Below, one piece after another: positions 1-19,591 of a DNA stretch of 20,000 nt. Numbering within the stretch: position 1 is the stretch's first letter; each line of letters begins with the position of its first letter. The translations under genes were made by a program, and so were the position numbers. The stretch lies in the sequence record SRR20825019_1535; one strand, 5' to 3'. The notes under the pieces were generated by a model. The model made no database searches, was not told the origin of the DNA, and saw nothing but the letters and a program-made list of their open reading frames with translations.

Positions 1-1
1 T

Positions 2-997: not shown

Positions 998-999
998 GA

Positions 1000-1263: not shown

Positions 1264-1279
1264 CGACCGCTTCGGGTCG
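1264..1279 (+). repeat. Quasi-palindromic repeat CGACC-GCTTCG-GGTCG (putative recombination site)
   Basis: Near-identical to 9424-9439 and 19576-19591. ACGACCGCTTC (1263-1273) is also inverted at 1318-1328. Confidence 0.6.
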
Positions 1280-1686
1280 ACCGCCAGCCGAATAGGCCAT
1301 CCGGCCCTGCAGGGTGGGAAGCGGTCGTTGCCGCAAACGATAGATACATCGAAGTGTTGCTCAGCCCTCGCCGACCTATCTGCCCAACAAGGCAGCTTCG
1401 ATCTCACCAGGGAGATGGATCAGCTGAGCTACTGCCCGGAAGCTGAACAGTGACGGAAACTATGGCATGAGGTCTGCTGATCTTCGAGAGAGGAGATCTG
1501 ACGTGACCGTAATTCGTTTGTAAGCATACAGGGGGAGTCCGGTACGGAAACCCCGAAGCCGGCCAACCCGACGTGGGTCTCGTGAAGCTCATGGTGCTGA
1601 TGCTGGAGTGCTTCATCGCCGCAGATCGCGGCTTTGCAAAGGCGCGGCGGCAAGACAAGACGAGAGTTTCTCTCTGAGAGCTGCCG

Positions 1687-1731
1687 TTGCAGACCCATGA
1701 TTTTATGTGCCATACTCATTAAATCATGGGT
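1687..1731 (+). promoter_or_regulatory. Putative promoter overlapped by an inverted-repeat operator
   Basis: Perfect 11-bp IR ACCCATGATTT (1693-1703) / AAATCATGGGT (1721-1731). TTGCAG (1687-1692) and TGnCATACT (1708-1716) resemble -35 and extended -10. It lies ~10 nt before the HTH gene start. Confidence 0.6.
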
Positions 1732-1741
1732 GTCAGGCACA

Positions 1742-2032
1742 GTGACCTACGACGATTTCATCACCGAACTGAACAAGGCGGGGCTTACCGTCCGGCGCTT
1801 CGCCCATCTTATGGGAATGCAACCAAACTCAATCTCAAACAATAAGAAGAAGGGCGAGATTCCCGATCATCTCGGGGTTATTGCGAGCCTCCTCGCCGTG
1901 ATGTCAAACCATGAAATTAACTTCGAAGCGACCTTCGCGCGGCTCGAACCCAGGCTAAAGAAGCCGCGGGGGGCTTCCAAACCCGGCAAATTTGCGGGAG
2001 ACCCGCAGGGTGTACTGGAGCTGAGAAAATGA
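1742..2032 (+). CDS. Small XRE/Cro-like HTH DNA-binding protein (possible controller of the MTase-nuclease pair)
   Basis: GTG start at 1742 gives 96 aa, MTYDDFITELNKAGLTVRRFAHLMGMQPNSISN..., a typical Cro/XRE helix pattern. The track's start at 1634 would run through the operator. Confidence 0.8.
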   Translation: MTYDDFITELNKAGLTVRRFAHLMGMQPNSISNNKKKGEIPDHLGVIASLLAVMSNHEINFEATFARLEPRLKKPRGASKPGKFAGDPQGVLELRK

Positions 2033-2060
2033 TGCGTCAGACGCGCCCTTGCAGTGCTTT

Positions 2061-2075
2061 GTTCTTTATTTGTTC
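2061..2075. promoter_or_regulatory. Alphaproteobacterial-type LexA (SOS) box
   Basis: GTTC-TTTATTT-GTTC is an exact GTTC-N7-GTTC with an AT-only spacer, intergenic and ~50 nt upstream of the MTase start. Confidence 0.65.
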
Positions 2076-2125
2076 CACCCCCTGCGCTATGTCTGCATAT
2101 CTCAAGCGCCAACGGGGGGCAGGGC

Positions 2126-5100
2126 GTGGCTGATAGTTTTGCGATGCATTGGCGCGAGGCTCTCGCTCTCGAGCGTCGAGCGGCGCCCGAGTTCTATACC
2201 TCCGCCACCGAAGTAGAACCGGGGCCGCATGCGGAAGCGATTCGCTTTGCCTTGGTCGATCTCGGCTTGGCCGCCGTATTCTGTATCGAGGGGGTTCCGA
2301 CCATCGGCTTCCTAAATCAGCCAGATGTTTTGCCTGCCCGTATAGACGAATTGCACCGCATCCTCTGGAATCAGGGATTAATGAGTTTGTTGCTGGTCCT
2401 CAAAGAGGAGGAACTGGTGGCCTACTCCTTGGTCCAGCGGCCGTTCCAGCACAAAGTGGGGCAGCGAAACGACCCGCGGCTAATCACAACTCTTTCGCTT
2501 CTTTCTGACGCGATAGCGCTTCGTGAACTGCTCGACTCTACCGAGTCGGGGCGCTTTTGGTTCGAGAACGACAAGTTCTTCAATCCGGAGGATCGGGTCG
2601 ACAGTGTCCTGCTCTCAAACCTGCTTGAAGCTTTTCGCGACATGCGCGACGACCTTGGTGGGGAGGCCGCCCAAGCACTTTTGATGCAAACCATGTTCAT
2701 CGCATATCTTGAGGATCGAAAGATCCTCAAGGAAGCGGTGTTCCAAGAAGCGTCCAACAAGACATGCTCCAGTCTTGCGGAGATGCTTGCGGCAGAGTCC
2801 CCAGGACATTTCGAGTCCCTGTTCGTATGGCTAAAAGGAGCATTTAACGGAAACCTGTTCAACGCGCCTTGCGCCTTCGAAATGGATAATGCAGCGCCCC
2901 CGAAACTGGCCGTAAGACACCTGCAAACGCTCGCGCGGTTTCGGCATGGTCGGGAGGAAATGGCTTCTGGGCAGCTTCGCTTATGGGGCTACGATTTTCG
3001 ATACATGTCGATCGGCCTCATTAGCGCGGTTTACGACCGCTTTCTGAAGGAAGAGGCGGAGAAGAAGAGCGCCGATGGCGCATTCTACACGCCGATGTTT
3101 TTGGCCGATGTGGTCGTAAACCAGCTATGGGACGATCTCTCCGACGAGCAGCGGGCCAGCGGGATTTTCTGCGATCCGGCATGCGGGTCGGGGATTTTTC
3201 TCGTAAGGCTGTTCCAGCGCCTAGTGGCGCACCACTGCCGTATCAAGAAAAAGCGTCATGCCACATGGGAAGAGTTGAAAGCCATCGCTCATCGCCTGCA
3301 TGGGGCAGACATCAACCCCTCGGCTGTCCGGGTGGCAGCTTTTTCTCTGTATATAGCGCTGCTCGAACAGTCCAATCCGCCCGTTCTGCCGGCCCTCATC
3401 GACGCAGGCAAGCTTCTGCCATCGCTCTATGGAGATACCCTCCTTCCTGCATGCGACTTCTTTGCGGCTGATGAGCGACCCAAATATGATGCGGTCATTG
3501 GCAACCCGCCTTGGAAGGGGCGCAGTGGTCAGGTCACGACGGCCGAGACCTGGGCAAAGACACATCGCTACCCTCATCCTGCCAAGGACATTGCTTGGGC
3601 GTTCGTCTGGAAAGCTCTTAATGTCGTTAAGCCGGACGGGCATATAGCCTTCCTGCTGCCAGCAATGGGTATTTTGCATAATACTTCGCGCGAGGCACAA
3701 GAGGCTCGGCGGCGGCTCCTTCGGGAAGCCCGAGTTAAACGGATCATCAACCTATCGGACCTTTGCTTCCAATTGTTCGATGGGGCCCAGAGACCGACGG
3801 CATTTGTGCTTTACACGCCTTCAGGCGACGATCTCCCCTATCGATTCGAATACTGGGTGCCGAAGGCTGATCTTAACCTGCGGCTCAAGCGCCTGATGAC
3901 ACTGTCGCGTGCCGACCGTATCAGGTTCCGTTCCGATTTGGTCGGAAAGGATCCCACGCTGTTCAAGCGCCGTCTTTGGACTCGGTCGCCAGATGAAAAG
4001 CTGCTGCAATATTTACGGACTATTCCATCGTTGAATACGTTCATTCGTGAATACAGGGAGATCCACCGGACAAGAGTCGTGATGAACCGGGCAACTGACT
4101 GGGTAATTGGACAAGGGTTCAAGCCGGCGCAGGAAGAACGACTAGACGACCCGGATTACGAGACAACGACAAGTGAAAGCGTGACTCGCTATCGGTATAT
4201 GGACGCCCGCGCGTTCCGCACGATAGCGTTGCCGCCGATTGACGCTGATCCCTGGCCGACGTCGGTCGTTCATCGTCCCGGATTTGCTGAAGGATTTACG
4301 GGTCCCCATATCTTGATCCCTCAGGGTGTCGAGCGTTCAATTGGGCGCGCTCGCGCAGCTTATTCCGAGCAGAGCTTGACATTTGAGCACTCACTGCAGG
4401 CTATAGCCGTTCCTGAAACGGAACGACGGAAGGCAAAGGTACTGACGGCTGTCCTGAATAGCAGCCTTGCCGCATGGGTATATTTTCATGATACGGCTAA
4501 CTTGGGAGCAGACCGTGCGAAGATTCATCAGGGCGAATTGCTCAAGCTGCCGTTTGACGTGCCTGAGAACATGCCGGACCCCATACGAGCGACTGAGGCG
4601 GAAGAGAAAATCGTTCAGTTAGTCGATCGCCAAATTGCAAACGCGAACGAACTCCTGTCGATGGAATCGACTCCTCTCGATGAGATCGATCATCTGGTTT
4701 TTGATTATTACGGGCTTGATGCGCGAGAGATCGCACTCATCGAGGATACCTTCCGCTACATTATTCCAGCGATGCAGCCGCGGCGTAGAGCAGGGTTGCA
4801 GAAGATCTGGACCAACAGCGACGTTGAGCATCGATCCGACTACGCATCCATGCTGTGCGATGCTCTCGAACCGTGCTTCCGGCAGAGTATTAGCGCTTCG
4901 CTCGCTGCGAAGTCAGCGGACGTTGCAGTTCTCAAACTGACGATCAGCGACGAATCTAGCAATTATAGGGAGGAGGCGTCATCCGAGTTTGGAAGATTCC
5001 TTCAGTCCATAAAGGACAACCTGCCTATGCCCCTGCCTGGAAATGTGCAGTTGGTGCCGGACCTTTGCTTCGTAATCGGAGCCGACATGTACCTCGTAAA

Positions 5101-5224
5101 ACCGATGCAATTGCGGCATTGGCTGAGGTCGACGGCACTCGCTGATGCAGAGCAAATCACGGCCGAGTTCAGCGCAGCGGTTGCGCGCCATAGCCAGGGC
5201 GGTTATGCGTATGCTGACTGGTAG
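2126..5224 (+). CDS. Large SAM-dependent N6-adenine DNA methyltransferase (type I HsdM / type IIG-like, gamma class) with probable C-terminal target-recognition region
   Basis: GAFYTP (motif X), DPACGSGIFL (motif I), GADIN (motif II) and VIGNPPW (motif IV) occur in gamma order. The GTG at 2126 follows a G-rich RBS; ~1032 aa. Confidence 0.92.
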   Translation: MADSFAMHWREALALERRAAPEFYTSATEVEPGPHAEAIRFALVDLGLAAVFCIEGVPTIGFLNQPDVLPARIDELHRILWNQGLMSLLLVLKEEELVAYSLVQRPFQHKVGQRNDPRLITTLSLLSDAIALRELLDSTESGRFWFENDKFFNPEDRVDSVLLSNLLEAFRDMRDDLGGEAAQALLMQTMFIAYLEDRKILKEAVFQEASNKTCSSLAEMLAAESPGHFESLFVWLKGAFNGNLFNAPCAFEMDNAAPPKLAVRHLQTLARFRHGREEMASGQLRLWGYDFRYMSIGLISAVYDRFLKEEAEKKSADGAFYTPMFLADVVVNQLWDDLSDEQRASGIFCDPACGSGIFLVRLFQRLVAHHCRIKKKRHATWEELKAIAHRLHGADINPSAVRVAAFSLYIALLEQSNPPVLPALIDAGKLLPSLYGDTLLPACDFFAADERPKYDAVIGNPPWKGRSGQVTTAETWAKTHRYPHPAKDIAWAFVWKALNVVKPDGHIAFLLPAMGILHNTSREAQEARRRLLREARVKRIINLSDLCFQLFDGAQRPTAFVLYTPSGDDLPYRFEYWVPKADLNLRLKRLMTLSRADRIRFRSDLVGKDPTLFKRRLWTRSPDEKLLQYLRTIPSLNTFIREYREIHRTRVVMNRATDWVIGQGFKPAQEERLDDPDYETTTSESVTRYRYMDARAFRTIALPPIDADPWPTSVVHRPGFAEGFTGPHILIPQGVERSIGRARAAYSEQSLTFEHSLQAIAVPETERRKAKVLTAVLNSSLAAWVYFHDTANLGADRAKIHQGELLKLPFDVPENMPDPIRATEAEEKIVQLVDRQIANANELLSMESTPLDEIDHLVFDYYGLDAREIALIEDTFRYIIPAMQPRRRAGLQKIWTNSDVEHRSDYASMLCDALEPCFRQSISASLAAKSADVAVLKLTISDESSNYREEASSEFGRFLQSIKDNLPMPLPGNVQLVPDLCFVIGADMYLVKPMQLRHWLRSTALADAEQITAEFSAAVARHSQGGYAYADW

Positions 5225-5882
5225 TCTGGATCACTGGCTCCGTCACTTCCGAAGTCTCGAAGAACGGGTCGCTGGCGCGGTTGAGGCCGCATGGCCCATT
5301 TGCATTGCACCACTTCAATCGAAGAAGGACGCGATGACTCACGAAGATCACATCACTGAGCATCTCGTTCAGTCGTTAATTCAGACGAAATCTCTTCCGG
5401 GCCGCATCGTCTATCAATACACCCTGCTCGTCGAGGACGCCGATGGCAATGTATCGATGTCGAGCAACGTCGATTTTGTCCTGACCGTCGGCGATGACGA
5501 GGATGTCTATCTTGCCTGCGAATGCAAGCGATTGAACGTGCCCTACAAGACAGGGCTGAGGGGGCTCGTCGGCGAGTATGTAAACGAGGGCCTTATGCGG
5601 TTCGTGACTGGGCAGTACTCAAACGGTCTGCCTGTGGCCATGATGCTGGGATATGTAATGAATGCCCGAACGGACAGGGCACGCCGAGGAGTGAAACGCG
5701 CTATGGCACTTCGATCTGCAGCCATCCGGCTTCAGTCCGATCAAGATGCCCCGATCGTGGATGGTCGATCACTGCGTTTCCACACCACGCACTTATGCGT
5801 GCCTGGACACACAATAGAAGTAGCTCACACATTTCTAGCATGGGGTTCCGGCACCAAATCTGCCGAGAGTGGCGGGAACTGA
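5211..5882 (+). CDS. Putative PD-(D/E)XK-fold nuclease, translationally coupled to the MTase
   Basis: Helix HEDHIT (E), then NVDFVL (D) and ACECKRL (ExK), matching the E...D...ExK signature. The start (5205 or 5211) overlaps the MTase stop; ~223 aa. Confidence 0.72.
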   Translation: MLTGSLDHWLRHFRSLEERVAGAVEAAWPICIAPLQSKKDAMTHEDHITEHLVQSLIQTKSLPGRIVYQYTLLVEDADGNVSMSSNVDFVLTVGDDEDVYLACECKRLNVPYKTGLRGLVGEYVNEGLMRFVTGQYSNGLPVAMMLGYVMNARTDRARRGVKRAMALRSAAIRLQSDQDAPIVDGRSLRFHTTHLCVPGHTIEVAHTFLAWGSGTKSAESGGN

Positions 5883-6046
5883 TTGGGAACTTGGGGTCCG
5901 GCCGCTTGCCAGTTTGTAGTTGGCGTATTGGGGTTTCTTTACTCGGTTTCCCAAAAAATATCGGTATAGCTTTTGAGTAATTTCAAATGCCTACATTCTT
6001 CCGTAGAAGATAGTATAGAAAGCCCAACGTCGCACTCATCGCGGCG

Positions 6047-6970
6047 TCACCGGAGGCGATCGAGTAGGGTTTCGACCATTTCCTGGCTTGAGTTTGCGAC
6101 GATGTCGAGCGGCCGGCCCTCTTGCCTCATCAGCGCGATCAGAAGGCAGGCGGTGAAGGGCCAGAAGGACGAGTCGGGGGACAGATTGTAGCTGCCGATC
6201 AACGCCGTCAGCCGCTCGGCGATCGGCGGGTACTGACGGTTGCCCCAATGCGCGTAGGTCGGCGTCATCGCGTGTATTGTTACGGCGGCGAGCGCTATTC
6301 CCATCGCGCGTTTCTGGTGAACATCGGCATATTGGTGCCCGTGTTCTTTCGCGTAGGCGGCGAGACCGCTGGTCATGAACTCGCGGGCCCAGATGTCGCA
6401 GGCGATTTCCTCTTCTGGCAAGGTAGACGGCGCGTTGTTGTCGGCGCAGAACATAACGTGTCGAAACTCGTGCAGCAGCGCGAAGGCGAGAGCTAACAAG
6501 ACGAGGTCAAACATCGCCTTGTGCTGCTCATCCCCCAAGCTTTCTCGGTCAGCGGTCGGTTCTGGGATGTCCGCGGGCCATGAGATTTGCGCGGTCAGTT
6601 CAGCAGTGACGAGCGACTGGGCGCTGGCAATGCGTTGCTTATAGTCAAACTCAAATTGTCCGCGTTCGGCGTCAATGTTGAGCGCCTGATCGAGCGGTAT
6701 GCCTGTGAGCGTCGCGAGCTCCAGGCCGGGCGAGTAGACCTCGATTGCGTGCCAGGCGCTGAAACCGAGTAGCCAGAAGAAGTCGATCGTCTTGGTGTCG
6801 AACTTGATGCGATTGGCGTCGGCATTCATTGTTGGGCCTTCGGCGCTTGGCGCGACTTCTACCGCGTGGCCGTATTGGCTCCAAAGGCCGCTGACTTCGT
6901 CGGCACGCTCGGGGACGGCGCCGCGCAAGAGGTGAAGGACGATCGTCCGTTCGGATGGTTCTGTCTTCAT
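6047..6970 (-). CDS. lit: Phage exclusion protein Lit family (peptidase U49, HEXXH zinc metalloprotease)
   Basis: AFALLHEFRHV zinc motif, upstream WPADIPEP, downstream EEEIACDIWA and YPPIAER. These features and the 307-aa size match E. coli e14 Lit. ATG at 6970 has an AGGAG RBS. Confidence 0.85.
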   Translation of the reverse strand: MKTEPSERTIVLHLLRGAVPERADEVSGLWSQYGHAVEVAPSAEGPTMNADANRIKFDTKTIDFFWLLGFSAWHAIEVYSPGLELATLTGIPLDQALNIDAERGQFEFDYKQRIASAQSLVTAELTAQISWPADIPEPTADRESLGDEQHKAMFDLVLLALAFALLHEFRHVMFCADNNAPSTLPEEEIACDIWAREFMTSGLAAYAKEHGHQYADVHQKRAMGIALAAVTIHAMTPTYAHWGNRQYPPIAERLTALIGSYNLSPDSSFWPFTACLLIALMRQEGRPLDIVANSSQEMVETLLDRLR

Positions 6971-7019
6971 GCCAGGTAGTTCTCCTGTGATGGGCGACGG
7001 TGCCTGTCTGTTGGGCCGA

Positions 7020-8435
7020 TCATGGGGGCTCGCTTTCACTTTTCGCGACGTCTGTCTTGTCGGGCTCGCCAGCCATGCGCAGATGAGTGATCGACGAAAT
7101 GACCGAGTTCGCCCACATGGTGCGGCACTCGACATCGCCGCCGCGCTCGAACCAATGCGTCGCGCCCGGTATGAGATTGAAGGGAATGGGGTACGTCGCC
7201 TTCGGGTTGTGAAAGACCTCCAGCTCCTGACACCATGCTTCGCCCCAAGGCCAAAGTGCCTGGTATTCGGCGCCGCCGACCGACAGATGGAAGTCAATGG
7301 GCTCCAGCGCGCCTGGGGTTCGGTCGAAGAGAATGCCCCGGCGAGTCATCGTGAGGCCGGGCGGCTGCCATCCGGCGAGAAAGCCCATGCGGTTGAATTT
7401 GGCGAGCGTCGCCGCGTTGCTGAAGATGACGGCGGAGAGGTGGGCGAAGTCGGGATCGCGGAACAGTCCGGCCGGAATGCCGTGCCTTCCCGTAAGGTTG
7501 CTGATCGGCGTGCCGACAGCGCGTCGTCCGGCGCCTTCGCCTTCGACATCGGCCCGCAGGCCGTAGAGATAGGTCGGCAAAGCCTCGCGGCTCCATACCA
7601 TCGAGCCCGATTCGTGAAAGTCGGCGATCGCCAGCGCGAAGGGCTGACCTTTCACATGATCCAGCTCATGATAGTTGCGTTGAAGCTTGCTTCGCAGAGT
7701 CTTGGCGTAGCGCTCGGCAGGCGCGCCAGTCAGGCGTTCGTTTCGGTCGACTGGAGCGTGCGCCCAGTCTCCGATCCCGCTGGAGTGCGGCGTCTCGGAG
7801 TTCGCGGTCACGGCTTCGACCCAGCAGACGGCGTCGTCGTTTTCGATCAGGAAGTCGGGCGAGACATGCTTCTGCCTGACGCTCAGGCCTTGCTCGCGGA
7901 AGCAAGCCAGAAGGTAGAGTTCGAAGAGCCGGGACGCGAAGTTGTTGGTCTGCAGATCGGTGACGAAGTTGGCGTCCGGATTGGGAAGGGCGAGGTAGCA
8001 TTCGTCGATCGCCCTCAGCGCCGGGTAATGGCTGATCGTGCTCGTCAACAGCTCGAACTCCGGTGATGCCCCGCGCGGGCCGGTCTTCAGTAGAAGCGGG
8101 CGCCGCCGCGCGCCCGGGGGCAATGGTTCAGGCGGCTCGCCGGCGCGCATATCGAGGCTCAGGTGATCCAGCGCGACCTCGGGCGTGGAATAGGGGCCGC
8201 CTTCACTAACGCGGACCCAACGATGATCGACGCGTCGTCGCAAAGCCAATGTGGTGAAAGTCCCGCGCTCGTGATCGAGGAGGATGCAGCCGCTCGCTCT
8301 GCCGCGCCCTACCTGATAGCTCCCGAAGATCCGCGCGGGATCGAAATTGGGCCCGCGTTCGAGCGACAGCGCGTAAATCTCGAACTGGCGTTGGCTGATT
8401 GGTGAGATCAGTCGTTGCTCATCGCCGACGGCCAT
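7020..8435 (-). CDS. Hypothetical protein with restriction-endonuclease-like PD-(D/E)X(K) core
   Basis: 471 aa with a GAGGT RBS. FASRLFELYLLACF...SPDFLIE...WVEAVTAN gives E...PD...ExV, with the canonical Lys replaced. Confidence 0.7.
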   Translation of the reverse strand: MAVGDEQRLISPISQRQFEIYALSLERGPNFDPARIFGSYQVGRGRASGCILLDHERGTFTTLALRRRVDHRWVRVSEGGPYSTPEVALDHLSLDMRAGEPPEPLPPGARRRPLLLKTGPRGASPEFELLTSTISHYPALRAIDECYLALPNPDANFVTDLQTNNFASRLFELYLLACFREQGLSVRQKHVSPDFLIENDDAVCWVEAVTANSETPHSSGIGDWAHAPVDRNERLTGAPAERYAKTLRSKLQRNYHELDHVKGQPFALAIADFHESGSMVWSREALPTYLYGLRADVEGEGAGRRAVGTPISNLTGRHGIPAGLFRDPDFAHLSAVIFSNAATLAKFNRMGFLAGWQPPGLTMTRRGILFDRTPGALEPIDFHLSVGGAEYQALWPWGEAWCQELEVFHNPKATYPIPFNLIPGATHWFERGGDVECRTMWANSVISSITHLRMAGEPDKTDVAKSESEPP

Positions 8436-8439
8436 TTTC

Positions 8440-8777
8440 TACCTCTCGGGTTGGCAAGCACCCGCCGCGGCATCTCGGGCGCATGATCATGACGCCTGCG
8501 CTGCAACCTGAGCCAGGATGTCGTTGGCCTCTCACTCGTCGCCGTGCGGCGCAATGACGAATTCGCGATCCCAGACGCCCCAAGTTGGTCTCATATAGCA
8601 AGTCCTCCATTTCGGATTGCTCGAAGTCAGCCGCCGGCTCGTCACTCTCCCAGCGATCCGCTCCTTGACCTTCCGGATCGCTGGGAGAGTGACGTCGTCG
8701 AGAAACGATTGAATCGTTTTACCGTGCCGTGCCGCCGAGACATCGGCATAGCAGAATTGCCGGCGAAACGGCGTCAT
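8440..8777 (-). pseudogene. Frameshifted/deleted remnant of a gene coupled to the HEPN gene
   Basis: ATGA overlap at 8774-8777 with the upstream gene. The protein-like start MTPFRR...FLDDVTLPAIRKVKERIA continues plausibly in another frame (SDEPAADFEQSEMEDLLYET). The 3' end is uncertain. Confidence 0.5.
8640..8694. repeat. Perfect 21-bp inverted repeat with 13-nt loop
   Basis: CGTCACTCTCCCAGCGATCCG (8640-8660) / CGGATCGCTGGGAGAGTGACG (8674-8694). Confidence 0.9.
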
Positions 8778-9346
8778 CGGACTCGCTCCGCCGCTTCCGC
8801 GATCATGTCGCGATAGGCATATGTGATGAGATCTCGGATTAGCTCGAGAAGTCCGCCGACCGGCAATCCGTCAAACGGATCGCCGTGCGCTGCCAAATTT
8901 CGGCGGTCCGATAGGCTCGGTTTGGTCTCGCCGGTCAGTTGTCCGATCGCCGTCCCATCGCAGCGAACGACCATCGGTATGGCTTCGTCAGTGAGACCGT
9001 CGACCTCGACCATGTGTTTTAGGAGAACGGACAGACTCCGCTGCCTCTTCCGGTACAGATGTCCGTAACGGTCGGTCACTGCCAGTTCGAGCGCAGTAAG
9101 CGCGACGAGCTCAGCCGCCTTGATTAGATCGGTGTCGAACCATGCGAGCAGGTAGAGCTTCTGGGCACGCAGATACTTGAGATGAACGATTTCGGGGACG
9201 AAGGGACTGAGAGACAGGCCGTCGACGGCATCGCGCCAGCTTTGTGCATCTTCGAACGCGAGCAGTGCCCCTGGTGCCCCAGGTTTGGGCCAAGGGACCA
9301 CCAAGGGGACCTTGCGAGGTGGCAGTTCGTGGAATGCGCTCGCCAT
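8774..9346 (-). CDS. HEPN-domain protein (putative RNase toxin / Abi effector)
   Basis: 190-aa, helical-looking sequence with ALTALELAV (conserved E helix) and a C-terminal RNLAAH (R-X4-H HEPN motif). AAAGGGG RBS. Confidence 0.75.
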   Translation of the reverse strand: MASAFHELPPRKVPLVVPWPKPGAPGALLAFEDAQSWRDAVDGLSLSPFVPEIVHLKYLRAQKLYLLAWFDTDLIKAAELVALTALELAVTDRYGHLYRKRQRSLSVLLKHMVEVDGLTDEAIPMVVRCDGTAIGQLTGETKPSLSDRRNLAAHGDPFDGLPVGGLLELIRDLITYAYRDMIAEAAERVR

Positions 9347-9387
9347 TTTGGCCCCTTTCGACTGACGATCGTCTCATAGACCTCCGG

Positions 9388-9440
9388 TGACCGCAATTGG
9401 TCAAACGTCGGAGATACATCGGGCGACCGCTTTGGGTCGC
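9388..9440 (+). repeat. Tandem pair of quasi-palindromic sites upstream of the recombinase
   Basis: TGACC-GCAATT-GGTCA (9388-9403) and GCGACC-GCTTTG-GGTCGC (9423-9440); cores are 36 bp apart. Confidence 0.65.
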
Positions 9441-9516
9441 GTGTTGCCAAGATGAGCGTGAAGGCATTGAATCCCGTGACAGGAGGGAAGGAGCATTCTT
9501 TTGAGAGGATGCGACG

Positions 9517-10152: not shown

Positions 10153-10159
10153 GGAACAG

Positions 10160-10187: not shown

Positions 10188-10210
10188 TCCTCATCCTGAG
10201 TGTATCCCGG

Positions 10211-11614: not shown

Positions 11615-11625
11615 TATCTTTTCCT

Positions 11626-11657
11626 TATGGCGTTGGAGTTCTATGGCGTTGGAGTTC
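11626..11657. repeat. 16-bp perfect tandem duplication in the MFS leader
   Basis: TATGGCGTTGGAGTTC x2. Confidence 0.85.
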
Positions 11658-11847
11658 TTGGTCGGCCGAGACAATTCATTCTGGCGACTTGCTCCATCGC
11701 GTGGCGGGGAGCCGTTTACCGGCTCCGCGATTACGATTTAAGGTTGTCGCGGCCCTGTCGATGACCCCAACCTTGTCTGTCTGTTGCTGTGTGCAGAGCA
11801 GCTTGGGAAATGCGCCCGGATGAGGCATTTCGATACGCTTTCGTCAC

Positions 11848-12882
11848 TCACCGGTTCATGTTCCGCTCCCAGAACATGACGGCTTCACGAAGCCATCCTT
11901 CAGCTGAAGTTCCCGTGCCGGCTCCAAACCCATGGCCAAGATCGTCGAATTTGCGGTACTCGACCGCGGTTCCGATCGACGTCAGGTTCGCTATGCGCTT
12001 TTCCATGGAAGAAGCTGGCGATATCCGGTCGCGGCCGCCGACGGTAACGAAGGTTGGCGGCTCTTTCGCTGCGATATCGGAATGCGCCGTGTAGGCCATG
12101 ATCACGGCCGCAGGCTTTGGGTAGCCGGCAACTCCGAACGCCGATGTTCCGTGTGATCCGATGGAGGCGGCCATTCGCGCGCCGGCGGAACTTCCCCATA
12201 ACGAGTAGGCGCTTGTTCCGACGCCAAGCGCGTCCGCGTTTCTGAAAATGTACGCCACGGCGGCGGCCATATCCTCGGTCGCCACGCGGCCACCTTGTCC
12301 CACGCGGTACTTCAAAACGAAGGCATTTAGCCCCCGGTCCGATATCTCGCGGGCGTAGGGAAACCCTTCATGGACCGAGCCGACATAGACAAAGCCCCCA
12401 CCAGGGGCCACGACGGCGAAAGGCGCGCCAGCCTGTCCCCGGAAGAAAAACAGCCCTGTCTGTTCCTTGTCGGGCCGTGCGCGTTTCTCCGCCTCATCAT
12501 AGATGTCGTAAAAGACAGGCCGTCCGGCAGCTACCTCATCGATCATATGGTTGAGGGAAGCAAGAACCGTCCCAGGATCGACATGGGTGTGATAGGGCAG
12601 GAGCGTGCCGATCTCATGCAGCTTCAGATCCTGATCATAGTTGCGATCCTCCCAGGGGAGGATCTGCTCCGCATATCCCGAGAAAGCCGGATGATGGAGG
12701 AGGCTCCCGATGGAATCGTCTGGGCCGAGGTGCTGCCCCAGGACGTTATCGGGAGCGCCAATCTCAAGAGTGTGTCGGCTGGCTCGGTCCTGAATGCTCC
12801 CCTCCGCCCGGACTTCGGTGCAGCAAGGCGCCAACACCAAGAGTGCCGCAAGCCAGGCGAAGTCCGGAGCAGTGATAGCCAT
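11848..12882 (-). CDS. Secreted alpha/beta hydrolase (esterase-like)
   Basis: Signal-peptide-like N-terminus, PGGGF oxyanion motif, GSSAG nucleophile elbow and HGFG catalytic His. Confidence 0.88.
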   Translation of the reverse strand: MAITAPDFAWLAALLVLAPCCTEVRAEGSIQDRASRHTLEIGAPDNVLGQHLGPDDSIGSLLHHPAFSGYAEQILPWEDRNYDQDLKLHEIGTLLPYHTHVDPGTVLASLNHMIDEVAAGRPVFYDIYDEAEKRARPDKEQTGLFFFRGQAGAPFAVVAPGGGFVYVGSVHEGFPYAREISDRGLNAFVLKYRVGQGGRVATEDMAAAVAYIFRNADALGVGTSAYSLWGSSAGARMAASIGSHGTSAFGVAGYPKPAAVIMAYTAHSDIAAKEPPTFVTVGGRDRISPASSMEKRIANLTSIGTAVEYRKFDDLGHGFGAGTGTSAEGWLREAVMFWERNMNR

Positions 12883-12907
12883 GGGGATTTTCCTTCATCA
12901 CCGGTGA

Positions 12908-14031
<1,124 letters not shown>

Positions 14032-14033
14032 TA

Positions 14034-14930
14034 ATGGCGATCGAAAACTTCAACGACCTTGCCGCTTTTGTGGCCGTTGCGAAGGAGCGGAGTTTCACCC
14101 GTGCTGCGGCCAAAATGGGCGTATCGCAATCCGCGCTAAGTCAGACAATTCTCTCGCTGGAGAAGCGCTTGGGCCTACGCCTGCTCACGCGGACAACGCG
14201 CAGTGTTGCCCCGAGCGAAGCCGGTGAACGCCTCCTGCGGACCGTTGCTCCGAATTTCGAGGAGATCGAGGCAGAGCTCGCCGCATTGAACGAGTTGCGA
14301 GATACGCCGGCAGGCAGCGTCCGCATCACTGCGGGAGAACATCCGGCTATCTCAATCCTGCAACCAGCGCTCAAGCGATTCCTGCCAGAATATCCCGATA
14401 TAAATGTCGAGATTATCGTCGATTATGGCCTCACCGACATTGTCTCGGAGGGCTACGATGCCGGTGTCCGCATGGGTGAGCAAGTGGCTCAGGACATGAT
14501 TGCAGTTCGTATTGGCCCGGAAATGCGTATGGCTGTTGTGGGCGCACCTGGCTATTTCCAACACCATCCGCCGCCGCAAACGCCACAGGACGTCGCCGCA
14601 CATACCTGCATCAACATGCGGCTGCCGACTTATGGTGGGCTATTTCCATGGGGGCTGGAGAAGGGCGGGCGGGAAGTCAAAGTACGCGGCGCAGGCCAAC
14701 TCGTCTTTAACAATCTCGCCATGCGTTTGGCTTCAGCACTTGATGGTCTTGGCCTGGCCTATATGCCGGAAGATCAGGTGCTCCCCTATATTTCCGATGG
14801 TCGGCTCATACGTGTCCTTGAAGATTGGTGTCCGGCCTTTCCCGGATATCATCTCTACTATCCGAGTCGCCGCCATTCGTCTCCGGCGCTCAGCCTGCTT
14901 GTGGACGTGCTACGGTACCGTGACCCTTGA
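14034..14930 (+). CDS. LysR-family transcriptional regulator (CrgA/PgrR-like)
   Basis: SFTRAAAKMGVSQSALSQTI...LLTRTTRSV wHTH plus substrate-binding domain; divergent from the AKR gene. Confidence 0.96.
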   Translation: MAIENFNDLAAFVAVAKERSFTRAAAKMGVSQSALSQTILSLEKRLGLRLLTRTTRSVAPSEAGERLLRTVAPNFEEIEAELAALNELRDTPAGSVRITAGEHPAISILQPALKRFLPEYPDINVEIIVDYGLTDIVSEGYDAGVRMGEQVAQDMIAVRIGPEMRMAVVGAPGYFQHHPPPQTPQDVAAHTCINMRLPTYGGLFPWGLEKGGREVKVRGAGQLVFNNLAMRLASALDGLGLAYMPEDQVLPYISDGRLIRVLEDWCPAFPGYHLYYPSRRHSSPALSLLVDVLRYRDP

Positions 14931-15614
14931 TCAGGACCGGGACCCGCGCCTCGCATGCAGGAAAACCTTCATGGCATAGTAAGTCAGAAAGATGTAAAGC
15001 CCGGCAATAGCACCACAGTGGATAAAGAACCCAAGGCTGGATTCCTCGAAGTTCCACCATTCAAGTGTCATGCGCATGGCCAGTTTGTCGCCAAGTCCCA
15101 GAACGGATGAACTCCACACACCATGGATCGCGATGCCCGCGGCGATCAGCCGGAGCGCGGCCGTGCGCCAGGGGTTCGTCCGCTGGATGCCAAACAGATT
15201 GCGCGCTGCGCCCATGATCAGCGGCCAGCGCAAGCCGAGATGGATGGCGACCAGCACCAGGGCCCAATAAGCCGCAAGCGTGTGGATCTGCCGTACGGTG
15301 AAACCGCCGAGCTGCGACATGATTCCGGACAGGGCGTTGGAGATCAGCACGCTGGTGATCAGCAGCACGAGCATCGCCGCCAGCAGCGCCCCGGTGGCCA
15401 GGATATCGATCCGGCCACGCGGCTGCCTCCGGGCACGCGGAATGGCTCCGTACCAGCGGCGATTGAAGACATTATGCGCTATCAGCATCAGGAACATTGC
15501 GGTTCCGGCCAGCTCATGCGCCACATTGCCGAGCCACCAGTAAGAGAACCCGAACAGCAGAAGGGCTGCCGCGAGGGTGTCAAAGACCAGACGCAGATGG
15601 AGCGAAGGGATCAC
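14931..15614 (-). CDS. DUF4405-like membrane protein (His-containing, cytochrome b-like)
   Basis: Multiple TM helices with AHELAG, AHNVFN and RQIH...AIHLG. GTG start at 15614 follows the P460 gene. Confidence 0.7.
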   Translation of the reverse strand: MIPSLHLRLVFDTLAAALLLFGFSYWWLGNVAHELAGTAMFLMLIAHNVFNRRWYGAIPRARRQPRGRIDILATGALLAAMLVLLITSVLISNALSGIMSQLGGFTVRQIHTLAAYWALVLVAIHLGLRWPLIMGAARNLFGIQRTNPWRTAALRLIAAGIAIHGVWSSSVLGLGDKLAMRMTLEWWNFEESSLGFFIHCGAIAGLYIFLTYYAMKVFLHARRGSRS

Positions 15615-15631
15615 GGCGCGGCTCTTCCCGT

Positions 15632-16114
15632 TTATTCGACAGGTGTATGGCCATCGAAGCGTGGAATGCGATAGGCGGTATAGAGATAATCGCTGTCTTC
15701 CTGGCTGCTGTGGCAGGACTGACAGCGTGCGGTATTCTCGTCCATGTTGATCGACTTGTCCGCCCAGAACCACTGGAACTGCCAGTCGTCCGTACGCCGC
15801 CGCTCGTCATAGTCGGCGCCGAATTCCTCGCCTTTTTCCATGACGAAATAGCGATGGACCGCACCGTCCCGGTAATCGACCAGAACGAAATGCGTTCCGT
15901 TCGGGATTGGCTGTCCAGCCCGTACCGCCTCGACCGCCTCGGGCGTAGTCATGATGTGCTCGGTCACCTCGCCGCGCCGGACTGTGGTGTAATGCACCAG
16001 CTCGTTGAGATTTTCGGGGAATGTGACGCGGTTCGGCTCGGCCTGGGCCGGCCAGGCGGCCAGAAAGGTGCCGGTCACCAGGACTGCTAGAGTAAATAGG
16101 TGTGATGCCTTCAT
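15632..16114 (-). CDS. Cytochrome P460 / c'-beta family periplasmic monoheme protein
   Basis: Signal peptide ending AQA, P.GT.FV, FVMEKG, W.F and a C-terminal CQSCH heme motif. ATG at 16114 has a GAGGT RBS. Confidence 0.82.
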   Translation of the reverse strand: MKASHLFTLAVLVTGTFLAAWPAQAEPNRVTFPENLNELVHYTTVRRGEVTEHIMTTPEAVEAVRAGQPIPNGTHFVLVDYRDGAVHRYFVMEKGEEFGADYDERRRTDDWQFQWFWADKSINMDENTARCQSCHSSQEDSDYLYTAYRIPRFDGHTPVE

Positions 16115-16169
16115 TGCATACCTCGTTTGATGGAGAGAGTGGGGATCGCCGTATGAGCTCGGTCGGGCG

Positions 16170-16640
16170 TCAGCGCTGATATTGCGCGTCGGTGACCAGC
16201 TCCATCCACTCGACCGTCCTGCCGTCGAGGGCTTCGGAGATCGCAACGTGCGCCATTCCCACTTTCGCGGAGGCGCCATGCCAATGCTTGGTCATTGGTG
16301 GGATCCAGACAATGTCCCCGGGTTTGATTTCCTGGACCTCTCCGCCCCAGTTCTGCACCCATCCGACCCCGGCGGTGACGATCAGGGTCTGGCCGAGAGG
16401 ATGTGTATGCCAGGCCGTGCGAGCACCGGGCTCGAAGGTCACTATACCGCCACCGAGGCGCCCGGGCGCGGCCGCCTGAAACCGTGAGTCGACCCGCGCT
16501 GACCCGGTGAAATGGTCGGACGGCGCAACGGTCGACGGCTGCGATCCGATCCGGGTGACGACGAGTGCCTGATCCGCCTCGACCGGTGCCGCCGACGCGA
16601 GCAGGGCGAGTACCGGCAATGCCTTGGTAATCTTTTTCAT
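16170..16640 (-). CDS. Cupin-domain protein (hydroxynitrile-lyase-like cupin) with signal peptide
   Basis: TFEPGARTAWHTHPLGQ and PGDIVWIPP..KHWHGA cupin motifs. Confidence 0.9.
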   Translation of the reverse strand: MKKITKALPVLALLASAAPVEADQALVVTRIGSQPSTVAPSDHFTGSARVDSRFQAAAPGRLGGGIVTFEPGARTAWHTHPLGQTLIVTAGVGWVQNWGGEVQEIKPGDIVWIPPMTKHWHGASAKVGMAHVAISEALDGRTVEWMELVTDAQYQR

Positions 16641-16695
16641 GATGATCCTTCGGGGTGATTGCGGGCCGGGACATGTGACGGCGGCGTTACGCCGC

Positions 16696-17094
16696 CTAGT
16701 CCTCCTTGAAGACTTCCTTCGCGATCAGCGCTGCCGTGACGGAGCTGGGCCAGCCCGCATAGAAGGCAATATGCGTGATGGTCTCGGAGAGCTCCTCCCT
16801 GGTCACGCCGTTGCGGAGAGCGAGGCGGAGATGGGAGCGCAGTTGGTCGGGACGATTGAGAGCAATGAGCGCGGAGACCGTCGCCAAGCTCCGGTCGCGT
16901 TTGGAAAGCTCGGGACGCTCCCAGATATCACCGTAAAGGACTTCATCGGTGAGCTCGGCCAGTTTCGGGGTGACGTCGCCCATCAATTGCTGTGCCCGGG
17001 ATTGTTGTTTCGGTGCCTGATCCTGGGCGTAAGCCGGGACCGCCATGGTGCCCAGAAGCAGAACCGGGAGGGCCATCTTGCTGATAAGATTCAT
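16696..17094 (-). CDS. Carboxymuconolactone decarboxylase (CMD/AhpD-like) family protein with signal peptide
   Basis: LYGDIWERPELSKRDRSLATV...HIAFYAGWP. ATG at 17094 has a GGAG RBS (17106 is an alternative start). Confidence 0.9.
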   Translation of the reverse strand: MNLISKMALPVLLLGTMAVPAYAQDQAPKQQSRAQQLMGDVTPKLAELTDEVLYGDIWERPELSKRDRSLATVSALIALNRPDQLRSHLRLALRNGVTREELSETITHIAFYAGWPSSVTAALIAKEVFKED

Positions 17095-17147
17095 TGCAAA
17101 CTCCATGTGAAAGGCTCGAGATTGGGTGAAAGACGTGTGCCGGTAGA

Positions 17148-18218
17148 CTACGAGCGACTGGCGGCAAGGGTGCGGGCGAAGAACGGCGTCAGCCTGCCCA
17201 TCGCGGCATCCACATATTCGGGAACCCAGTAGGTTTCGATATGCGTCGCCCCATCGATCACGAACAGCTCCTTGTCCGTCGTGCCGGAGGCCTTTGCGAA
17301 GGCATCCTCGGTCATGTAAAGGCTGTCGGCCTTGCTGCCCGCGATCATCAGTAACGGCGTGCCGATCAGCTCTATCTGGTCGGTAGCGTCCCAGCGCATC
17401 AGGTCCAGCAGACTGCTCATCGTGTATTTGAAGGTCGAGTTCGGGTGTGCGTGGCTTTTCCAGTAGTAAGCATAGCCCTGGCGATAGAGATCGAACGGCA
17501 GCGCAGCGATTTGCTCATCCGTGAGATTGGCATCCCCGGCATAGAGAATTTCTCCGCCAGCGGCTTCCTGGGCACGGGCGGCCGAAGCCTGTGCCAGACG
17601 TTCCTGGATACTATCCAGTTGTGAATCCACGTAGCCGTTGCGGCGGACCCGTCCGGAATTGAACATGCTCAGGGTAGCGATGGACTGGAAGCGCTTGTCG
17701 GTTTTCGCCGCCGCCAGCGAGTATCCGCCGCCGCCGCAGATCCCGAGCAGCCCAAGGCGCGAGACGTCGGCGCCCGGGTAACGGGTGATGAAGTCCGCCA
17801 TGCCGTGGACGTCCTCGATGCGGTTCGAGGGTTTGTCCACGTTGCGCGGCTGCCCGCCGCTTGCCCCCTGATAGGCGGCATCTGCGGTGATCGTGATATA
17901 GCCCTGCTCGGCCAGGTGCTGGGCATAAAGCCCCGCGACCTGCTCCTTCACGCCGCCATTCGGGTGCGCGACGACGATGGCCGGATATTTCTCCTGCGGA
18001 TCGTAGTTCGCCGGGGTGTAGACGTTTGCGGAGATGTCGAGGCCGTTGAGCTTGTAGGTGACCGGGTGAATATTCACCTTGCCCGGCTCGTTCTTCGAGA
18101 TCGCGCCTTCATAGACCAGGGTGAACGGGTTCTGCCGGTAATCCGCCGCCTCGGCTGCGCCAACCGAAGCGCCTGTTACTGTTGCCAGAATGGCGGCTTT
18201 CATAAGTGTGCGTTTCAT
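17148..18218 (-). CDS. Alpha/beta hydrolase, YcjY-like (Cys nucleophile), secreted
   Basis: HPNGGVKEQ, GICGGGG nucleophile elbow, GATH; signal peptide MKRTLMKAAILATV...AEA. Confidence 0.88.
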   Translation of the reverse strand: MKRTLMKAAILATVTGASVGAAEAADYRQNPFTLVYEGAISKNEPGKVNIHPVTYKLNGLDISANVYTPANYDPQEKYPAIVVAHPNGGVKEQVAGLYAQHLAEQGYITITADAAYQGASGGQPRNVDKPSNRIEDVHGMADFITRYPGADVSRLGLLGICGGGGYSLAAAKTDKRFQSIATLSMFNSGRVRRNGYVDSQLDSIQERLAQASAARAQEAAGGEILYAGDANLTDEQIAALPFDLYRQGYAYYWKSHAHPNSTFKYTMSSLLDLMRWDATDQIELIGTPLLMIAGSKADSLYMTEDAFAKASGTTDKELFVIDGATHIETYWVPEYVDAAMGRLTPFFARTLAASRS

Positions 18219-18271
18219 TTGACTGCTTCTTTCATGTTCAGTGCTTGCTCGGAGCCGAAGGCGGATCGCCG

Positions 18272-19357
18272 TCACTCCAGATCTTTCTCGGTCAGGAATT
18301 TCGATACGAGGTCCGCGATCTCGACATTGTTCAGGTCGGAGAACGGGAAATGCGTATTGCCGGTGATGCCGGCCTCAGGCAGATGCACAAGGGTGACATC
18401 GCCGCTATGCTTGTTGACCGTCTCTGCCCAGATCCGCGCCATGTCCAGGCGCACGCGCCAGGCGTCCTGCGTGGGGATGTCCGTCGGCGTTGCCGGGATG
18501 TTGTCCCCGTAGAAAATGATGATCGGGATCTTCGTCAGCTTCAGGAAGTCTGTCATCGCGACCGGAACACCCTTCAGCGTGTCGAAGGAACTCGGCATCG
18601 GATCGGGCACTTCACCTTCCGGGAAGACGAAACCGCTGCCCGGCTCGAAAGCGACGACGGCCTTGATGCCGGCAGTCTTCATTGCGGCAGACCAGCCCAT
18701 GCCGCCGCTGTGGGAATGGGTGAAGAGGATGCCGGGGCCGATCCTGTCGAACAGCGCAGAGACAGCGTTGGCATTGAGATCAGAGTCGATCGGGCCCGTA
18801 TCTGGCGTCATCGCCCGGAAATACTGATCCAGCGATTCCGCGTCGCGCGGGAACTGCACGCCCTCGAAGTAATCCGGCCAAACACCAACACGGAACTGGC
18901 CGAACCAGAATTGCTCGTCCGGTCTCGGAGCTATCGTCGTCCCGACGGTACTGCGGCCGGCATTGCCCCGGCGGGGCTGGTCGATGAGATAGACCGGGAA
19001 GTTCCGGCGCAGGAAGATGTTCTGAAAGCCTTCCCGCCCGTCCGGTGTGCTCTCCCAGGTCCTGGAGAACTGGCCGTAGCCGTGCCACATCACGATCGGA
19101 AGCGGCCGGGGCTCGACCGGGATCTGATAGAACGCGTAGAGATGGTCGCCATGATAGGTCTGGCCGGCTGGCTCCAGCGGCTTCTTCGGATCAAAGCTAC
19201 CTGGCGCCGTCGTCACGGTCCCGCCGACGGCGAAGCTGCCTTGTTCCTGGATCATCAGGGGCGCCGGTTTGGCCGTATCTTGTGCCCGGACGCCTGACGA
19301 CGCTCCAGCGATAACGGATATGAGCAGCAGCGCTGCCAGACTTGTACGAGACCTCAC
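18272..19357 (-). CDS. Secreted alpha/beta hydrolase
   Basis: WHGYGQ, TPDGREG, DQPRRG, THSHSG (Ser nucleophile), GNTHFPF; GTG start with GGGAG RBS and signal peptide. Confidence 0.88.
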   Translation of the reverse strand: MRSRTSLAALLLISVIAGASSGVRAQDTAKPAPLMIQEQGSFAVGGTVTTAPGSFDPKKPLEPAGQTYHGDHLYAFYQIPVEPRPLPIVMWHGYGQFSRTWESTPDGREGFQNIFLRRNFPVYLIDQPRRGNAGRSTVGTTIAPRPDEQFWFGQFRVGVWPDYFEGVQFPRDAESLDQYFRAMTPDTGPIDSDLNANAVSALFDRIGPGILFTHSHSGGMGWSAAMKTAGIKAVVAFEPGSGFVFPEGEVPDPMPSSFDTLKGVPVAMTDFLKLTKIPIIIFYGDNIPATPTDIPTQDAWRVRLDMARIWAETVNKHSGDVTLVHLPEAGITGNTHFPFSDLNNVEIADLVSKFLTEKDLE

Positions 19358-19415
19358 GATGGTCGCTCCCTGCTAAATTGCGGAACCGACCCCTATATGG
19401 CCTCGGATGAAATAT

Positions 19416-19459
19416 CGATTAGATGGCTAAATACGATAGGCTTGATTAGAGAGGCTAAT
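19416..19459. promoter_or_regulatory. Second copy of the LysR-type operator upstream of the six-gene operon
   Basis: ATTAG-AGAGG-CTAAT (19445-19459) and CGATTAG (19416-19422), with the same 27-bp ATTAG spacing as at 13990/14017. Confidence 0.7.
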
Positions 19460-19540
19460 GAATGAGTGTAGCTGATGACCTGCGTCCCGCAAACTCCTCC
19501 AGATTTGGGATCACTCCATCAGTTGTCGGGGTCTTTCAGA

Positions 19541-19591
19541 TGACCGCTTTGGGCTAAATGGCCTATAGTCGCGAACGACCGCTATGGGTCG
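19541..19591 (+). repeat. Tandem pair of quasi-palindromic sites at the island's right boundary
   Basis: TGACC-GCTTTG-GGCTA (19541-19556) and CGACC-GCTATG-GGTCG (19576-19591), 35 bp apart, followed by a hairpin at 19591-19616. Confidence 0.65.

Follow-up and report, generated by a model that had tools for sequence, protein, structure and literature searches.

What brings unrelated blocks of genes together at one chromosomal position, with the same short sequence between them? This question is raised by a stretch of 20,000 nucleotides from sequence record SRR20825019_1535, referred to here as the window. It carries a gene for a 211-aa tyrosine recombinase and five copies of a 16-bp box. Our comparisons of the window with related genomes, plasmids and sequencing runs tend to favor the view that the boxes are the recombination sites of this recombinase, and that the region is an integron-like cassette array located at a chromosomal hot spot.

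The core of the box is CGNCCGCTWYGGGTCG, that is, 16 bp with imperfect inverted arms of 5 bp and an asymmetric spacer of 6 bp. The pattern YGACC-N6-GGTCR occurs exactly at positions 1264, 9388, 9424, and 19576. These four matches compare with 0.07 expected, and none of 200 shuffles contained four or more. A fifth, imperfect copy starts at 19541. As judged from the asymmetric spacers and from a 28-nt weight matrix, all five boxes lie on the + strand, and the same matrix finds six matches above 15 bits in the window versus 0.12 in Markov shuffles. Three of the copies have the 17-mer [AG]CGACCGCT[TA][CT]GGGTCG in common. All five boxes are intergenic. The 1264 box is flanked by an open reading frame (ORF) for a P-loop NTPase and by the next genes, the 9388 and 9424 boxes lie between a 190-aa ORF on the - strand and the recombinase ORF (9517-10152, +), and the 19541 and 19576 boxes separate the last cargo gene from the conserved flank. 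From start to start, the first pair is spaced by 36 bp and the second by 35 bp, and the 9424 box precedes the recombinase ORF by 93 bp. The initial annotation, made from the letters of the window, had reported five co-oriented intergenic boxes with one imperfect copy, two tandem pairs 35-36 bp apart, and the placement of one pair near the recombinase and of the other at the junction with a core gene. All of this stands, and the core gene is represented by its 3' end (DUF3422) in the right flank. The same annotation had noted compensatory changes in the arms of the 9388 box. The T...A pair is present in the sequence, but this case is anecdotal: the outermost arm pair of 19 aligned sites is C-G in 12, T-G in four, and G-G, G-C, and T-A in one each, and therefore arm complementarity is not systematically maintained.

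A complete site usually consists of a composite of about 55 bp, in which an A box, a linker containing CTATAG, and a B box follow each other, with 36 bp from the start of A to the start of B. In some copies, a 66-nt imperfect palindrome takes the place of the A/B composite. This is the arrangement at 1264, where the box and its extension (1264-1329) form such a palindrome with a predicted DNA fold of -24 kcal/mol (z -3.2). Paired sites or hairpins had both been suggested as the form in which the short arms might be recognized. The pair has turned out to be the rule, and the general hairpin has not: the consensus fold of the 19 composite sites is negligible (4 pairs, -2.9 kcal/mol), which led us to reject an attC-like hairpin for the composite site, and a good fold is seen only in the 1264-1329 copy. 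Recognition as a single-stranded hairpin is thus supported for this palindromic variant only. In addition, the window contains no match to Rfam families, tRNA, or tmRNA, and we rejected an RNA element or a tRNA/tmRNA target as the identity of the sites. Neither a promoter consensus nor a T-run terminator was matched in 9250-10300.

The recombinase is a tyrosine recombinase made of the catalytic domain only. This identity is drawn from three results. First, the match to PF00589 (2e-23, 83.5 bits vs. a cut-off of 27.1) spans residues 44-195 of 211. Second, an AF2 model made from the homologue alignment (pLDDT 81.6) shows a single folded domain at residues about 30-209. Third, the Foldseek alignments cover about 190 columns of targets that measure 270-350 residues; XerA, XerH, and Cre are the top matches, with a probability of 1.00 each, and Tn1549 Int and VchIntIa are also found. 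The N-terminal core-binding domain, which is typical of the tyrosine recombinase superfamily and not universal in it, is absent, as the catalytic domain is preceded by only about 30 residues, of which 1-23 are disordered in the model. An alignment of 33 homologues shows no variation at R62, K90, H159, R162, or Y194, and H185 is kept in at least 90% of them; these active-site residues align to those of XerA. The protein does not pass the integron-integrase models (TIGR02249, 26.1 vs. a cut-off of 265; PRK15417, 22.2 vs. 435), whose matches are confined to residues about 130-197. It does not pass the NCBIfam invertase models either (PRK09871, 40.8 vs. 222; PRK09870, 21.8 vs. 221), and the Xer models also fail by a wide margin. 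We confirmed at least 570 loci of this family in alpha-, beta-, and gammaproteobacteria, and 207 plasmid records contain a homologue at 60% identity or more. The annotations of the homologues say nothing beyond 'tyrosine-type recombinase/integrase'. Synonymous positions are saturated across the family, which indicates that it is old and under purifying selection.

The box accompanies this gene family well beyond the window. We built a test matrix from the three strong boxes of the window alone and scored the regions around a set of 80 homologues, kept from the at least 570 loci and 63-80% identical. On the + strand of the 350 bp upstream of the gene, scores above 8 bits were found at 37 of 75 loci and scores above 12 bits at 12 of 75, whereas each of six control regions exceeded 12 bits at 0-2 of 65-80 loci. 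Just past the gene, the minus strand exceeded 12 bits at five of 75 loci, and these matches are inverted copies of the same box. With a refined matrix, 1.155 Mb around the 80 homologues yielded 208 matches above 15 bits, compared with 6-8 in Markov shuffles. The density of sites is maximal at the gene flanks, with 34 + sites in -1000..0 and 24 - sites in 0..+1000. At this threshold of 15 bits, a + site is located at -300..-60 in 32 of 75 loci, from three proteobacterial classes, and a - site just past the stop codon in 24 of 72. Since synonymous sites are saturated across the family, the upstream motif has been kept by selection and not by recent ancestry. Box and gene are strongly associated, though not at every locus. 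This association supports the earlier proposal that the boxes are the cognate sites of the recombinase, together with the enrichment that a matrix scan was expected to find near the family; the breakpoints, where enrichment had been expected as well, are treated below.

The sites adopt two layouts around the gene. They are direct repeats in the lineage of the window, and inverted copies in many beta- and gammaproteobacteria and in the IncP-1 plasmid pRSB223 (L208). In the beta- and gammaproteobacterial loci, the inverted repeats are 45-55 nt long, and the site as a whole forms an extended imperfect palindrome. For the inverted layout, inversion is predicted and not excision. Plasmid pRSB223 shows three tandem + boxes at 7663, 7766, and 7869, with a spacing of 103 bp, upstream of the recombinase and a - box after it; an outer inverted pair (3146/14958) encloses an accessory segment of 11.8 kb, which adjoins a class 1 integron. 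On a Pseudomonas aeruginosa megaplasmid (L209), a ptxD-phnCDE phosphite-use cluster and a LysR gene have a recombinase homologue immediately downstream, and a site-like box is found at 3234, at the opposite end of this cluster. The phosphite-use cluster may represent another cargo module.

One match of the matrix was rejected as a site. It scores 16.8 bits on the minus strand at 9579-9606, inside the recombinase gene, and covers the codons of the conserved LVGQKRPLK. The third codon positions in this stretch (G24, P28, L29) are as variable as elsewhere, with an entropy of 1.7-1.9 bits. Because synonymous positions are free at these codons, the resemblance of the site to the GQKRP codons is probably a coincidence, while the site and the coding sequence may still share an origin. 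When read as their reverse complement, the GQKRP codons come close to GGCCGCTTCTGGCCGA, the site variant of beta- and gammaproteobacteria.

Breakpoints of homology were located by searching the window against 63 genomes of the order of G001, a complete genome with a chromosome of 5 Mb that carries the closest recombinase homologue among the matches listed (about 80-83% identity; tblastn 80%). Six close relatives of the window were found. In all six, the homology of the right flank (92-93%) begins at 19570-19579, inside the 19576 box. According to the alignment, the flank is conserved from TCGGTTCCC / TCGGTTCCCGCC rightwards in five of them, and G034 shares it from TCGCTGCCC. Each relative genome has a different sequence at the B-box left arm and spacer, at the A box, and everywhere further left. 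Between their conserved flanks, the relatives contain 3.7-5.3 kb of unrelated DNA, and 20 kb in G034. The region is a hot spot at a fixed chromosomal position. Its conserved left flank ends, at an inverted half box, in about 50 nt identical to window positions 1280-1329, a sequence that is present in 1-6 copies per related genome. A near-identical contig of 33.6 kb from run X16, a run from which the window may itself derive, places this left-flank boundary 1855 nt to the left of the window. The array thus measures about 21.4 kb and reaches about 1.9 kb beyond the left end of the window, so that it comprises at least three modules. The initial annotation had taken the boxes to delimit two modules; the boxes do act as boundaries, and the count was too low. 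The left boundary of the hot spot holds a perfect second copy of a 34-nt piece of the DUF3422 3' region (19805-19838). In X16, this copy lies about 1.96-1.99 kb left of the window and 63 nt from an element like 1287-1326, and the relatives are alike in this respect. The repeat may date from a primary integration into the DUF3422 gene at its 3' end.

A second breakpoint is found next to the recombinase. In G031, G034, G035, and G036, the recombinase unit starts at 9424-9427, and it is located on other contigs in unrelated surroundings. The unit of G031 is 98% identical in DNA and 100% in protein, compared with 92-93% for the core flank; this excess similarity suggests a recent transfer of the unit. 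Homology to the units of G031 and G034 stops at 10198. We also compared four runs (X1, X4, X12, and X16), all as assembled contigs. In X4, which is another organism, a contig of 41.5 kb spans 10143-19547, where it differs by 41 letters and 19 gaps (about 99.5% identity), and continues into other DNA from 19547, inside the 19541 A box. The recombinase unit of X4 shows about 3-4 times the depth of the rest and has three different left contexts, which join at 9425/9427. What we deduce from X4 rests on the contig crossing 19547 and on the loose ends at 9425/9427. Module M1, which precedes the recombinase unit in the window, is absent from the contigs of X4 and X12, and missing cover in X1, X4, and X12 alone is no evidence of absence. 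Altogether, breakpoints fall inside boxes at 9424-9427, 19547, and 19570-19579. The junctions are resolved to within the 16-bp box; both box edges occur as boundaries, and for this reason the crossover point is not fixed.

The genome of G001 offers a view of a larger array. The pattern CGNCCGCWWYGGGTCG has nine exact matches in this genome, seven of which lie on the + strand in C1:4805576-4874804, and one-mismatch matches outside the clusters occur at chance level (34/22 vs. 29/32 for a control pattern). A profile of 19 composite sites (R1) gives 21 matches with E below 1e-4. Of these, 17 lie around the recombinase in C1:4801630-4874811, all +, three lie in C1:1734432-1744521, all -, and one is found elsewhere in the 5 Mb. 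Most sites are 36-bp pairs made of an A box GAACGNCCGCTTNGGGNCGA, a CATAG/CTATAG linker, and a B box CGNCCGCTATGGGTCG, which matches the pairs of the window. With about 16 composite sites, all in one orientation, a region of roughly 75 kb is partitioned into modules of 0.58 to about 14 kb. Some of these modules hold a single gene, namely a NUDIX (0.58 kb), a hydrolase (0.8 kb), or a GNAT gene (1.5 kb). Others are operon-sized, up to about 14 kb, and carry a copper oxidase with an ATPase or an arsenite oxidase with ars genes; further modules contain a TonB receptor with FecR and an ECF sigma factor, an RTX protein, or LysR-linked catabolic genes. Module genes occur in both orientations. One intact recombinase and one broken copy are present, and the cargo is unrelated to that of the window, with the recombinase gene alone in common. 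Such an array with a single intact recombinase fits the earlier suggestion of an integron-like logic without IntI or attC, as does the failure of the integron-integrase models on the enzyme of the window. Six other genomes contain sequences 82-91% identical to an 87-nt stretch of G001 (L205:1718-1804) that ends exactly at a composite site; G044 has four of them.

A genome-wide scatter of the kind shown by repetitive extragenic palindromic (REP) elements, which the initial annotation had raised as the contrary case, is not what we see in G001, where the composite sites are clustered and the rest of the genome is at control level. Five betaproteobacterial genomes contain a local variant of the box in low number. 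It is clearly above control only in G065 (23 vs. 4), and three of the other four genomes are near control. The boxes of G065 cluster around the recombinase and in a few other places. With about 5-25 repeats per genome, arranged in clusters, the boxes are not a genome-wide REP. A collection-wide scan of 16-mers gave, among the matches listed, single scattered ones only, at about chance rate.

Based on these observations, we propose that co-oriented sites split the hot spot, from the conserved left flank to the 3' end of DUF3422, into self-contained modules. A module would start with the right part of a B box and end with an A box, a linker, and the left arm of a B box. Because the sites are direct repeats, recombination of two of them would excise the intervening module or modules as a circle bearing one composite site, and this circle could re-enter at any other site on the same or another replicon. 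The 211-aa enzyme is the likely catalyst of both reactions; the crossover would be positioned within the box, and the A box presumably takes part. Since a B box precedes the recombinase gene by 93 bp, this gene belongs to a cassette as well, and its product would work in trans on modules devoid of such a gene.

Several findings weigh against this proposal. The right end of the recombinase unit (10152-10198) carries no box, none scoring above 9 bits, and so the unit is not bounded by sites on both sides. The sole module found in two contexts is the recombinase-carrying one. An excised circle, an empty site, or a deletion joint was not among the assembled contigs, which cannot show rare forms. 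Among the homologues, 43 of 75 loci have no upstream site above 15 bits, and 15 of 67, many from beta- and gammaproteobacteria, show inverted copies on both sides of the gene. The other 62 genomes of the order contain none of the five small G001 cassettes that we tested. In G030, sites are present and no recombinase matches at E 1e-10 or better. In the close relatives, the composite-site profile gives no more than weak matches, which leaves their site maps incomplete. Finally, the spacers are not identical among sites (GCTTCG, GCTTTG, GCTATG, GCAATT), and classical tyrosine recombinases require identical overlap regions for full exchange.

Part of this evidence would be explained if the hot spot had grown by accretion. 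In this scenario, the boxes are attachment-site (att) remnants of independent integrative elements that arrived at one chromosomal position with recombinases of their own and lost them later. The one recombinase that survives would mobilize no module except the one carrying it, and all others would be relics fixed in place. Mobility confined to the recombinase carrier and the failure to find the five G001 cassettes elsewhere are in line with accretion, as are the recombinase copies that are often broken (G034, G035, and the second copy of G001), and a primary integration would be expected to leave a repeat such as the 34-nt one at both ends of the hot spot. However, the NUDIX and hydrolase modules of 0.58-0.8 kb lie between complete composites and are too small to have housed the 0.64-kb recombinase gene too. 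Moreover, the sites of G001, about 16, far outnumber its recombinases, one intact and one broken, and the sites are well conserved and co-oriented, unlike decaying relics. We therefore regard accretion as unlikely, while rating it above the two explanations that follow.

It is less probable still, in our opinion, that the boxes are not substrates of this recombinase at all. They could be XerCD-type sites, as in the pdif modules of Acinetobacter, or operator, terminator, or REP-like elements at operon ends that attract homologous or illegitimate recombination, and the recombinase would then be a passenger. Such a role hardly accounts for the position and orientation of the box upstream of the gene, which are fixed across three classes despite saturated synonymous divergence, nor for the clustering of sites around the gene against a chance-level count in the rest of a 5-Mb genome. 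The breakpoints lie inside the 16-bp box itself, and the negative Rfam, terminator, and promoter searches point in the same direction. What speaks for it is that G030 retains sites without the recombinase, that arms of 5 bp are short for a recombinase core site, and that recombination by this enzyme is a prediction. That the recombinase is mainly an inversion or self-regulating switch, or a minimal unit resembling an insertion sequence (site, recombinase, inverted site; about 0.9 kb), with the array of the window as a lineage-specific by-product, is very improbable: it would suit the inverted copies just past the stop codon (24/72 loci) or on both sides (15/67), the inverted repeats of 45-55 nt, the same layout on pRSB223, and the lack of a core-binding domain shared with the FimB/FimE invertases (40.8 bits with the NCBIfam invertase model), but in the window and in G001 no inverted copy follows the gene, and all sites are direct repeats that coincide with synteny breakpoints.

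The features of the window are listed in Table 1. The defence module M1 ends in a degenerate A-like box (about 9350-9365) and the linker CTCATAGACC. Among the matches listed for the 63 genomes of the order, those to M1 do not exceed about 100 bases, and a megablast search of M1 against plasmids gave no match. A perfect inverted repeat of 21 nt with a 13-nt loop (8640-8694) is located in or adjoining a small ORF of this module. Close to the left end of M1, a 77-nt stretch (1424-1501) has counterparts with 79-88% identity in at least 10 genomes of the same order, often more than once per genome. Rfam gives no match to this stretch, its predicted fold is weak (z -1.9), and it may be a small mobile element or a small RNA. 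We compared this repeat with the 87-nt repeat of G001 as members of one family, and they are different elements. Module M2 extends over 9424-19547, and its cargo codes, according to Pfam, for an MFS transporter, alpha/beta hydrolases, an aldo-keto reductase, a LysR regulator, DUF4405, a CMD-family protein, and a cytochrome P460. In the MFS gene, close to its 5' end, a 16-nt sequence is perfectly duplicated in tandem (TATGGCGTTGGAGTTC x2, 11626-11657); the X4 contig is without 16 letters at this place, which makes the duplication a length polymorphism.

Table 1. Coordinates of the sites, modules, and genes of the window.
Feature	Position	Strand	Basis or remark
Right part of module M0	1..1263		M0 start about 1.86 kb left of window (boundary repeat 1855 nt left of position 1, 33.6-kb X16 contig)
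P-loop NTPase ORF (M0)	2-997	-	Weak Pfam P-loop matches only
B box CGACCGCTTCGGGTCG	1264..1279	+	Exact pattern match; 21.7 bits
Extension of 1264 site, ending in GAAGCGGTCG (inverted left arm of box)	1280..1329	+	
Module M1, defence module	1330..9387		PADLOC, NCBIfam; also small ORFs
Type IIG restriction-modification enzyme (M1)	2054-5224	+	PADLOC 2.7e-87
Lit protease (M1)	6047-7297	-	PADLOC 1.3e-16; NCBIfam Lit 4.1e-57
PD-T7-1 (M1)	7020-8435	-	PADLOC 1.9e-85
Box TGACCGCAATTGGTCA, upstream partner of 9424 box	9388..9403	+	Exact pattern match; 16.7 bits
B box CGACCGCTTTGGGTCG, start of recombinase unit and of module M2	9424..9439	+	Homology breakpoints
211-aa tyrosine recombinase, catalytic domain only	9517..10152	+	Pfam PF00589
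GC-rich hairpin 3' of recombinase stop codon	10159..10192	+	
Cargo of module M2	10199..19540		Pfam
A box TGACCGCTTTGGGCTA, imperfect copy, cassette-side end of M2	19541..19556	+	21.5 bits
B box CGACCGCTATGGGTCG, junction with conserved chromosome flank	19576..19591	+	Homology start in six relatives
Conserved right flank	19592..20000		92-93% identity to six relatives
DUF3422 gene 3' end	19732-19998	-	Full-length gene in relative L213: DUF3422 1.7e-137

Integrons are the textbook cassette-capture system and, to our knowledge, the dif modules of Acinetobacter are the only other well-known case based on a tyrosine recombinase. As in integrons, a tyrosine recombinase adjoins a site, a co-oriented array separates unrelated cargo that includes defence genes, and single-gene cassettes occur. 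Integron-type arrays without a recombinase also exist, as clusters of attC sites lacking integron integrases (CALINs). Unlike in integrons, the enzyme described here is not IntI, has 211 aa, and lacks a core-binding domain; the sites are tandem 16-bp boxes without a conserved attC-like hairpin; the modules reach 14 kb, have both orientations, and bring their own regulators; and the recombinase lies inside the array as part of a cassette. With the FimB/FimE invertases, the enzyme has in common a size of about 200 aa restricted to the catalytic domain, as well as the inverted repeats of many beta- and gammaproteobacterial loci. However, the similarity is weak (40.8 vs. 222 with PRK09871), and the sites of the window are direct repeats at synteny breakpoints instead of the borders of an invertible promoter. 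In the layout formed by REP elements and their associated tyrosine transposase (RAYT), inverted palindromic repeats stand on both sides of the gene, and further copies are present at other loci. The beta- and gammaproteobacterial recombinase genes resemble it, being flanked by inverted palindromic repeats with further copies elsewhere in the genome, but the enzyme belongs to the phage-integrase family (PF00589) and not to HUH (Y1), and the repeats are clustered and not dispersed genome-wide.

Two other systems invite comparison. In the pdif/dif system of Acinetobacter, discrete modules between short tyrosine-recombinase sites are shuffled among replicons, each with several sites (PMC6449649, PMC13141974, PMC7399989). 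The likeness lies in gene modules bounded by short tyrosine-recombinase sites. According to the same reports, pdif sites bind Xer proteins and are used by the XerCD of the host, whereas a dedicated, cassette-borne, minimal recombinase is present here; likewise, pdif modules are described with inversely oriented flanking sites, in contrast to the direct repeats in the lineage of the window and in G001. Inverted site pairs in other lineages occur only around the recombinase gene. Tycheposons carry cargo for niche adaptation and defence into hot spots by means of tyrosine recombinases, as islands flanked by repeated att sites (10.1101/2020.12.28.424599). They share with our system the remodelling of a hot spot by cargo modules. 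However, they target tRNA genes and each has its own integration and replication modules, unlike the present region, in which no tRNA was found and one small recombinase accompanies many modules without any.

In the literature that we searched, which left aside supplementary files such as the classification tables of PMC8138268 that might name a subgroup, we found no description of the recombinase family, the sites, or the motif strings. Apparently, we are dealing with a gene-capture system of an undescribed kind, integron-like and built from different parts. More tentatively, and with slightly more doubt than conviction, we extend this proposal to a second gene-capture platform that would operate across Proteobacteria independently of integrons, on chromosomes as well as on plasmids (IncP-1 and Pseudomonas megaplasmids). 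A recombinase of about 200 aa without a core-binding domain would excise, integrate, and shuffle self-contained modules of one to many genes for defence, metal resistance, or catabolism through 16-bp boxes, arranged in tandem (A/B) or as palindromic composites. It would ride in the array as a cassette and serve in trans the modules that have no recombinase.

The recombinase family is also present on broad-host-range and clinical plasmids, where it adjoins resistance integrons and phosphite-use genes. A recombinase of 200 aa acting on a 16-bp site, if this is what the enzyme does, would be of interest as a compact tool. If our proposal is true, the family would constitute a third tyrosine-recombinase cassette system, with its own minimal enzyme and sites and able to handle whole operons together with their regulators, and it would account for the assembly and exchange of some genomic islands and defence hot spots.

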